DNA from: a virus | Lineage: Duplodnaviria; Heunggongvirae; Uroviricota; Caudoviricetes | Virus record (IMG/VR): IMGVR_UViG_2512047041_000009 | Span: 1-37,224 of that record | Direction: 5' to 3' (one strand) | Length of the DNA stretch: 37,224 nucleotides | Shown here: piece after piece, positions 9,001 through 12,000 of the stretch | Position numbering within the stretch: the stretch's first letter is position 1 | How the letters are laid out: each line of letters starts with the position of its first letter | Position numbers: made by a program

Positions 9001-12000
9001 AGGGAGACCGCATTGAACAGCGCCATCAGCGGGTCAATTTTTCCCCGTCCACTGGCCTGTTTGGTGATAAGAATGGCGTTACCTTTAGGCTCCACCCGGG
9101 CATTGCCGACACACCAGGCCATCAGGGGCTGGTCACCATGCACCAGCACCCCTTCAGCCAGTTTGCGCTCGGTGGTTTTAATGGCCCCGCCCAGTTTCCA
9201 GCCCTGGCTTATCCCCACCACAATTCCGTCGGGGATCCCGGCTTCCGCCAGTGAATCCAGAATCTGCCCCACCCCTGACGGGTCAATACCGATATGGTCC
9301 AGTAACTCAGCCTCATGAATGCGACGCACATATTCCGCCACTTCCGCCGTGTCATCCCCGACACGCCGGACAATGGTCATATCTCCACAGGCAACAAGAT
9401 CCTGAAACCGGGACGCCTCGCTCTTCCGTCGGACCACCGCGGTTTCATGCGCCCAGGCATGGCCCCAGCCCAGCCATTCGCGGGTCTCCCGGTCACGCCC
9501 AATCACATACATCCCCAGCAGATCATCCAGCCCTCCGCCGTCAATCCCCACCGTCACCACATCAGCACGACGCAGGATATCGTCCAGGCTGATACAACGG
9601 CCCTGCTCTTCCCAGAAATCAGCCCCCGCCCAAGCGGTCAGAGCGCAGGGCAAGACCAATTTCCACATTGGCGTGTTTTGACATGAACCCCCGGAATGTC
9701 TCTTCACCGGCTTCCCGGGCTTTACGGTACTCCCGGTACAGAAAGGCCTCATCCACTGAATAGCCGAGATTCGGATTGACCATGGCGAGGTTTTCCATCA
9801 GCAGGTGAGCCCCGCTTTCCACCATTTCAGGAGGGTGTTCAAATATCACCGGCAGAAAGTGCGGATCATTAATTTTGCCGTCGCGCACATCCCGGGCGTA
9901 CTGCAGTTTCTGTCTGAACACCCCGGCTGGCTGTTCATTCGACTGGGTGGTCGTATACACCACAAACCCTTCCGGGCGGGAGGCAAGCCCGCCGATGGCT
10001 TCACGTAACATGTCCTCCGCCTTGTACTGCTTGCCAAACAGCCACAACTCATCAATCAGCGTCCCCACGGACTTGATACCGGACACCGTATTCGGATCGG
10101 CTGCCACCACCTTCAGGGTGGTGTCCGTCACCCGGTGGGTGATGGTCCGGATATGTGTCTGCACCTGACAGAGGTCATCCAGATCATCGTCCCGTCGTAC
10201 CATATCCCTGGCAGGATTGAAGGCGTTGGCTGCCACCTCCACAGTCGGGGCCAGAATCGTGTAACCCGCCGCCTGCCGCCAGTTCAGTAACAGCGCCGTC
10301 ATCATGATCCCGGCGGCCAGTGTGGACTTGCTGTTTTTTTTGGGTATCAGAATGAACACTTCCTTGATATGGCGGACACCGGTCTGCGCATCGTAGGAGC
10401 CAAACAGAGCCGCCACCAGGTCAAACACCCACTGTGCACAGGACTCCCCGAACGTCGGGCTACCCGGTGCATCCACAATCCGCAGTTGTTTAAAAATCGC
10501 CAGGGCATGTGCGGCCTGGTCCGGATAAATCGGAGCCGGAATAATCGACAGCCCCTTTTTCAGGCGCTCTGCCCAGTCCGGGCAGGCCGTGCTCCATACA
10601 GGTATCATCCGTTGCCCTCATTATCGTTATTCACCACCAGTCGTGGTGGTGGTACCGCAAAACGGTTAGCCGCTTTTTTCGCGGCATCACCTTTTGCCGA
10701 TTTTTTACCGGCATCGCCTTTTTTATGGTGTGTGAACTGCGCCAGTCGCCAGGCCGCATCCAGTGCCAGTTTCGGATCAATGCTGAGGTTTTCCACCAGG
10801 ATCTGCCCCATAGCTTTCACCGGATCGGGAAGACCATCCTCCATATATTCAATACCATGAGACATCACCGCGGGCGGTGGCATCTCCGGATTGTTTTCGT
10901 CCGGCTGTGGTATTGCAGCCGCCTCACGGCGACGGGGTTTATCCTCCTGCTCTGATTTTTTCTGCCGGTAAACAGGAACCTCATCCACCTCCACCGTTTC
11001 GCACTGTTTACGGGCTATAAACGCGAGCACCTCCGGATCTTTTGCCAGCTGCGAGCCTTTAACCCTGGCGGTCTTCGCCGAATAACCGGCGGCAATGGCT
11101 GACGCTGTTTTGTTTTTCCCGGACATGAGCGCCAGCGCAAATTTTCGTTTTTGCGTTGTCAGCACAGCCTCCTCCCGGGTCCAGAACGCACTCAGCCGGG
11201 TATGGTTCAGCCCATTTTTCCCGGCGTCTCATGCCGCAAATGTTAACTGCTGCCTGGTTAACATTTTCTGAAAAAGCCAGTTAACATTTTTTTCGCACAA
11301 CAAACTGAATAATAAAGATAAAAACCGCAAAAATGCCCGGGCAGCCAGTTAACATGTTAACTGCCCTGAAACGGGAATTTTTTCTCTGCGTGAGAGGGGG
11401 CGCGGTGTCCAAAGCGATCGTTTTTTACGCCGGATGATCCCCCCCCCGGGTCGGGTTACAGTCCGATGATGTCGTCCGCTCTGCCACTACCTCCGGACAC
11501 CTCCGGCAGCGTCGGGTCCGGCATACCACCCGCCGCTTCACGAGCAGACTTTTGTCGATGGCATTCGGTACAGAGCGTCCAGAGATTCGTCTCCTCATTA
11601 CCACCACCGAACTGAAGTGCAATTCGGTGATCAAGTTCACTGTCACAGAGGTCAACCACACGACCACAGATACAGCACTGCCCGGCGTCCCTGAGCCAGA
11701 TATGACGCTTGAGGGAAACACGTGCACTGCCACTGACACGACGCTGCTCCCCCTTCAGAATATTCACCCGTCGGGTATTCAGTGTTTTGATTCTGCTCTG
11801 GAGTGTACGAAGCTGAGCCATGTAAAATCCCCGTCATATGGCAATCAGTAAAGGAAATAAATATGTCATCGAAAAACCGGACCCGCAGAACCACAACCCG
11901 CAATATCCGTTTCCCCAATCACATGATTGAACAGATCAACATCGCCCTTGAGCATAAAGGATCCGGTAACTTTTCAGCGTGGGTTATTGAAGCCTGCAGG

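Follow-up and report, generated by a model that had tools for sequence, protein, structure and literature searches.

A terL frameshift and a 12.85-kb tail deletion in a lambdoid prophage integrated in mlrA of Escherichia coli

The large terminase subunit gene (terL) of a lambdoid prophage in E. coli is interrupted by a single additional T, and the same prophage lacks its distal tail genes together with part of an att core. The window, by which we mean the whole stretch of 37,224 nucleotides that was analyzed (IMG/VR virus record IMGVR_UViG_2512047041_000009), very probably holds a cryptic prophage in mlrA that first inherited the T insertion in terL and then underwent a deletion of 12.85 kb. 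The terL lesion is an ordinary inactivating point mutation, and the terL pseudogene is already flagged in RefSeq for sister genomes.

The interrupted terL gene and the extra base

Two overlapping reading frames on the minus strand make up the terL locus. The first (9619..10608) encodes 329 aa, ends with …LRSDRLGGG followed by TGA, and matches the Pfam profile PF03354 TerL_ATPase over aa 65-238 (E = 3.8e-12). The second (8946..9752) encodes 268 aa in the +1 frame and matches PF20441 TerL_nuclease (E = 2.1e-8). In an intact 553-aa homologue PF03354 and PF20441 are found on one chain, with PF20441 spanning aa 276-535; the window terL has no single continuous frame for both domains, as the first frame meets its stop at 9621-9619 and the nuclease is encoded in the +1 frame. 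Intact terL genes of 1662 nt align collinearly with both ORFs (97-99.7% nucleotide identity), so that these are the parts of one broken gene and a chance juxtaposition is excluded. The split terminase that an earlier note on this DNA had reported at 9619-9752 is thereby confirmed, these coordinates being the overlap of the ATPase ORF and the nuclease ORF. The parts of the gene are as follows:

9619..10608, minus strand: terL 5' fragment, with the full ATPase domain and the first part of the nuclease-domain profile
9621-9619, minus strand: TGA that ends the terL 5' fragment, preceded by the out-of-frame LGGG
9632..9633, minus strand: lesion in codon 326 (TGG, Trp) of 553, with TT in place of the single T of intact homologues
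9623..9627, minus strand: G5 run, native; GCG GGG GCT encodes Ala-Gly-Ala in intact terL
8946..9632, minus strand: terL 3' part in the +1 frame, with the native frame back at TGG 9632-9630 and the rest of the nuclease domain
Sequence across the +1 frameshift region: CGCTTGGGCGGGGGCTGA

The 3' part encodes the rest of the RNase-H-like nuclease, and the Asp of its VGIDGGG motif (aa 353-359 after repair of the frame) is putatively catalytic. The lesion is located 28 codons upstream of this motif, whose GID is aligned with the GLD of the AGLDLS strand in HK97 TerL (PDB 6Z6D). Among solved structures, the sequence search found HK97 TerL alone (E = 1e-9, residues 85-534), whose resemblance to the window protein extends to the N-terminal ATPase, the C-terminal nuclease, the aligned GxD motif and the alignment of the Walker A (KKNSKST, aa 90) and Walker B (LIDE, aa 184) motifs. 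However, HK97 TerL is a distant relative (a 40-bit phmmer match, weak similarity) and, unlike the window gene product, it is one continuous chain. Judged from its reading frames, the window locus is best described as a terL pseudogene and not as a functional member of the TerL family.

In order to determine which base is extra, the window terL was aligned with the genes of E. coli AR_0017 (WP_016234515.1; 99.7% identity), phage YYZ-2008 (YP_002274187.1, genus Pankowvirus; 97.2% identity) and E. coli AR_0013. The 1.8-kb terL region matches 1,259 records of complete E. coli genomes and 93 phage records. AR_0017 and YYZ-2008 have the same gene order as the window (HNH-terS-terL-protease/capsid-portal), and the window differs from them by an extra T in codon 326. 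In the alignment with the intact homologues, this T is the sole length difference within terL and changes CGCTGGGCG to CGCTTGGGCG; in its context at window 9633/9632 the change is from GACCGCTGGGCG to GACCGCTTGGGCG. The intact genes read GAC CGC TGG GCG GGG GCT GAT TTC (D R W A G A D F), and the same stretch in the window and in AR_0013 reads GACCGCTTGGGCGGGGGCTGA. The sequence GGCGGGGGC is also present in the intact homologues AR_0017 and phage YYZ-2008, and all three of the aligned genes, that of AR_0013 included, contain the G5 run.

The two possible repairs of the frame do not give the same protein. Deletion of one T yields a 553-aa TerL with 0 differences from the AR_0017 protein (WP_016234515.1; P0016), and this T-repaired protein, with the peptide …SDRWAGADFWEEQGR…, is recorded on 316 public contigs. 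Deletion of one G also yields one open frame of 553 aa, but it carries W326L and A327G (…RLGGADFW…). The G-deletion repair was rejected, as all seven full-length homologues compared lack both W326L and A327G and the T deletion gives exactly the common protein. The claim of the earlier note that terL is inactivated by a +1 insertion is borne out by the extra base and by the split frame relative to intact homologues, but its assignment of the extra base to the G5 run is refuted; the G5 is wild type and a T is duplicated six bases upstream. Removing one G, which had been said to restore a single frame, does give an open frame of 553 aa but not the native peptide, and the count of four versus five G that had been put forward as the deciding test addresses the wrong bases, since five G are the wild-type state. 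The comparison with intact orthologues, also called for there, places the lesion at the T of 9632-9633 and not at the G run. A frame such as this one is repairable at several sites and only intact relatives reveal the base that is truly extra; the obvious homopolymer is innocent here.

Distribution of the TT allele and the possibility of recoding

A 61-mer with TT is found exactly in 2 of the 761 matching E. coli records (AR_0013 and AF57), and the in-frame 60-mer (single T and G5) is found exactly in 701 of 764. The RefSeq pseudogenes AM340_RS24925 (AR_0013) and AC9VUB_RS23315 (AF57) carry exactly the TT allele of the window, and terL is labelled 'terminase large subunit, frameshifted' in both genomes. 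The TT sequence was also found in the metagenome contig OGUN01001364.1 and in one IMG/VR contig. The exact 329-aa truncated protein occurs on 131 public contigs (306 index blocks) that come from NCBI isolates (HVH 53, NCTC assemblies), ENA gut metagenomes, JGI and Logan, and a scan of the GTDB species-representative genomes with a TT 35-mer gave no match. Thirteen TT-carrying loci were compared and differ by at most one SNP over the 2.2 kb of terS-terL.

This distribution bears on whether the gene is really intact, the length of its homopolymer, the G5 run, having been miscalled in sequencing or assembly. Single-base indels beside a G run are typical of long-read assemblies, but the extra base is a T that lies outside the G run and outside any homopolymer (CGC-T-GGG context), the G5 is wild type, and the identical allele is carried by AR_0013, AF57, an NCTC assembly, HVH 53, other isolates and several gut-metagenome contigs. 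Because the same TT allele recurs in other assemblies and in metagenomes, the sequencing error that had been offered as the alternative to a mutation is excluded, and we assign next to no probability to it. The TT allele is best understood as an inherited mutation of single origin, and the near-identity of all carriers together with the rarity of the allele indicates that this origin was recent. The T insertion would have arisen a single time, in a prophage that otherwise carried exactly the intact terL allele that is still common, and it would then have been inherited vertically in a bacterial lineage that has been sampled many times. Even where no read data are used, a real mutation can be told from a sequencing error by the recurrence of the allele across public assemblies.

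A real frameshift could still be bypassed or tolerated, either by a +1 slip on GGG_G that yields a full-length TerL (…RLGGADFW…) or by a terminase that works as separate ATPase and nuclease chains. After a +1 slip on GGG_GGC, two codons ahead of the stop, tRNA-Gly could re-pair perfectly, and the rest of the prophage is still intact in many TT strains. In prfB, the stimulatory G-rich stretch is located a few bases upstream of the slip site. Judged against this geometry, neither a hungry codon nor a well-spaced stimulator resembling a Shine-Dalgarno (SD) sequence is evident in terL; the A site at the slip position holds no rare or hungry codon, and the G-rich stretch overlaps the codon before the stop instead of lying a few bases upstream of the slip site. 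The frameshift is also not conserved, being present in about 0.3% of the matching complete-genome records, all carriers of which are near-identical, and terL is in frame in all of the phage records that were inspected. At 2 of 761 records, against 701 of 764 for the in-frame form, the TT form is too rare for a programmed recoding site.

With regard to a split terminase, no SD-like sequence was found before any ATG, GTG or TTG in the nuclease frame, and an independent start for the nuclease half was rejected because no such sequence precedes any start codon there. The exact 268-aa downstream ORF had no match in the protein collection, which is uninformative as gene callers use another ATG that gives 240 aa. 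Additionally, the separated domains of T4 gp17 keep partial activities and are not known to package DNA, which counts against a terminase in two pieces. Bypass or tolerance of the frameshift is thus very improbable, and the reading of an inactivating mutation is preferred. Spontaneous +1 slippage on GGG_G before the stop may nevertheless give a very low level of full-length TerL.

The window does contain a genuine recoding site that serves as a contrast to terL. The minus-strand gene for the tail assembly chaperone has A AAA AAG immediately ahead of its TAG stop (window 1512-1521) and is followed by a T-like ORF; this looks like an intact example of the classic conserved -1 programmed frameshift (G/GT type). 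A search for the lambda-type slippery heptamer GGGAAAG gave nine matches, which is not above chance, and none of them was relevant, the site in the tail chaperone gene being A AAA AAG.

Prophage context and the order of decay

Integrated in mlrA (yehV) of E. coli, beside btsS, the element belongs to the lambdoid prophages, and its head module is of the HK97 type (HNH, terS, terL, protease-capsid fusion, portal, connectors, tail). The yehV/mlrA locus is a well-known integration site of Stx phages (PMC8065619); the window is without stx genes, as far as the annotation of the near-identical AF57 prophage shows. Within the head module, the 645-aa 'major capsid protein' (window 6945-8882, minus strand) consists of an N-terminal prohead protease (PF04586, Peptidase_S78) and a C-terminal HK97-type capsid domain (PF05065), and this fusion sits before the portal gene, an order that is unusual compared with HK97. 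The features that bear on the order of decay are as follows:

10605..11165, minus strand: small terminase subunit gene terS, 186 aa, intact
11456..11821, minus strand: HNH endonuclease gene upstream of terS, a position typical of HK97-like packaging modules
230..1159, minus strand: truncated tape-measure gene, of which about the first 885 of 3267 nt are left before the ORF enters the flanking chromosome
269..281, no strand assigned: deletion junction, at which the interior of the tape-measure gene adjoins the initial 13 nt (CCCTGTCACGTTA) of the 21-bp att core

Window 1-281 corresponds to the btsS-mlrA chromosomal flank, and the interior of the tape measure runs from base 275 on. Comparison with the loci L005 (3951-3971) and L008 (33020-33040) places the breakpoint within the 21 bp of the att core, between CCCTGTCACGTTA and CGCGCGTG. 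There is microhomology at the junction, CAC(G/A)TTA, where the site on the tape-measure side, CACATTA, matches at 6 of 7 positions. The tail-side att core retains 13 of its 21 nt, and the opposite end of the prophage has int and xis ORFs. That the endpoint of the deletion falls inside the att core suggests an integrase-mediated deletion at a secondary site rather than a random one. The missing 12.85 kb comprises two thirds of the tape measure, the tail-tip genes (M, L, K, I and J equivalents), Lom, the tail-fibre genes and DinI.

The deletion was found in the window alone. The AF57 prophage covers window 275-36994 (36.7 kb at 99.92% identity, with three in-frame indels and 13 SNPs), and the AR_0013 prophage covers window 4615-25000 at 99.6%. 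In both of them the tape measure is full and the distal tail genes are present, and all ten of the genomic contexts fetched for the truncated TerL keep a tape measure of 1088 aa. Near 10642-10654, the terS of the window has an in-frame 3-bp deletion relative to most TT relatives; it is shared only with locus L011 of the NCTC assembly GCA_900448835.1, which marks L011 as the nearest relative of the window. Over 20,334 nt there is a single base of difference between the window and L011, which is one of the ten contexts and yet has a full tape measure, so the 12.85-kb deletion must be very recent. From these comparisons, the terL frameshift, which is widely shared, is the oldest event, followed by the 3-bp deletion in terS and then by the tail and att deletion that is limited to the window. 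This last event would have taken place very recently in the strain of the window and removed the DNA from the att core to the tape-measure interior; with the distal tail genes gone, the prophage would be irreversibly cryptic.

The decay of the prophage that was proposed in the earlier note is well founded on the terL frameshift and the deletion of tail and att sequences; as expected of a cryptic prophage, essential virion genes are lost or inactivated and the att core is damaged. The two supporting signs of decay named there fared differently. The truncated tape measure is specific to the window and holds as such a sign, but the methylase remnant is also found in a relative with an intact terL. 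The AR_0017 prophage, in which terL is intact, contains the methylase remnant, the partial ydfR and the ompC-like porin, and these are best regarded as features of the prophage family and not as signs of decay after the frameshift. In the window, this region (19400-19561 and 19602-21473) holds two tRNA genes and, next to them, what is left of the 3' part of a DNA methyltransferase gene, with an ompC-like porin gene in the opposite orientation. One tRNA is Arg-TCG, and the other has a CAT anticodon and is assigned to Met by ARAGORN and to Ile in RefSeq. As the same arrangement of tRNA, methylase and porin genes is found in AR_0017 with its intact terL, it represents an old cargo insertion and not recent decay.

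The portal gene, which also appears frameshifted, was considered as a sign of decay and rejected, because relatives with an intact terL and phage records share this form. The portal region (4149-6733, minus strand) contains a 454-aa portal ORF and a 407-aa ORF that overlap at ATGA, and the split is due to a G5 near 5385-5389 where phage YYZ-2008 has G6 and one 861-aa portal. An exact match to the G5 form is present in 216 records of complete E. coli genomes, and G6 with the same flanks is found in none. Among phages, JLK-2012 has the exact split portal, and BP-4795 and 1717 are partial matches in which two portal CDSs are annotated; PGAP labels the portal 'frameshifted' in every close relative that was examined. 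The split portal is best taken as a stable arrangement that provides no evidence of decay here, and it may consist of two stable genes or depend on -1 slippage on G GGG G. The 407-aa ORF that follows the portal contains a 162-nt tandem repeat (window 4615-5147; 3.3 copies, 92% matches). A version of 353 aa, shorter by one repeat, is found in relatives, so the copy number varies between strains.

Packaging and the fate of the prophage

The T duplication in codon 326 changes TGG to TTGG, and translation would then continue with Leu-Gly-Gly-Gly to the stop at TGA. The predicted 329-aa product would keep the ATPase domain and lack the catalytic part of the nuclease, which lies in the +1 frame and has no evident ribosome-binding site. 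Without its nuclease, a TerL can neither cut concatemers at cos nor form a working packaging motor. From the ATPase-only domain structure and this general knowledge of terminases, we infer that terL is inactivated and that the prophage is unable to make filled heads unaided.

Lesions of packaging and morphogenesis genes, as in the window, are known from the defective lambdoid prophages of O157 Sakai, including Sp4 and Sp15, the latter at yehV (PMC2669165). The lesion of Sp4 is an IS-disrupted nu1 (terS), whereas that of the window is a point frameshift in terL. The terminase-defective Sp4 was nevertheless packaged, most likely through the Sp14 terminase, as were other prophages of O157 Sakai with head defects (PMC2669165). 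A lambdoid prophage resident in the same cell might in the same way supply terminase and the other missing parts in trans, so that the element is still mobilized, and genomes with this terL family contain a median of 2 and up to 7 copies. However, AR_0013 and AF57 each have one place that matches terL and no second copy, and in the window the tail-side att core is cut and the tail genes are gone, which makes normal excision unlikely. Mobilization by a helper is very improbable on this evidence, and a prophage that is cryptic through the inherited terL insertion and the later deletion is the preferred reading.

It is also conceivable, though we consider it quite unlikely, that the TT allele persists for another reason. 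The lesion could be leaky through +1 slippage, or selection could favor a 'grounded' prophage that does not spread and keeps its lysis and cargo genes, those named in this connection being the porin, the NanS-like esterase and the tRNAs. If the 'grounded' reading were true, the TT allele would be a step of domestication and not neutral decay.

The importance of the finding is mainly one of annotation, in that the locus is to be recorded as a terL pseudogene of a cryptic prophage integrated in mlrA, the cause being the inserted T at 9632/9633. For the biology of such elements, the case gives a clean and dated order of decay in which a point frameshift came first and a large deletion followed.
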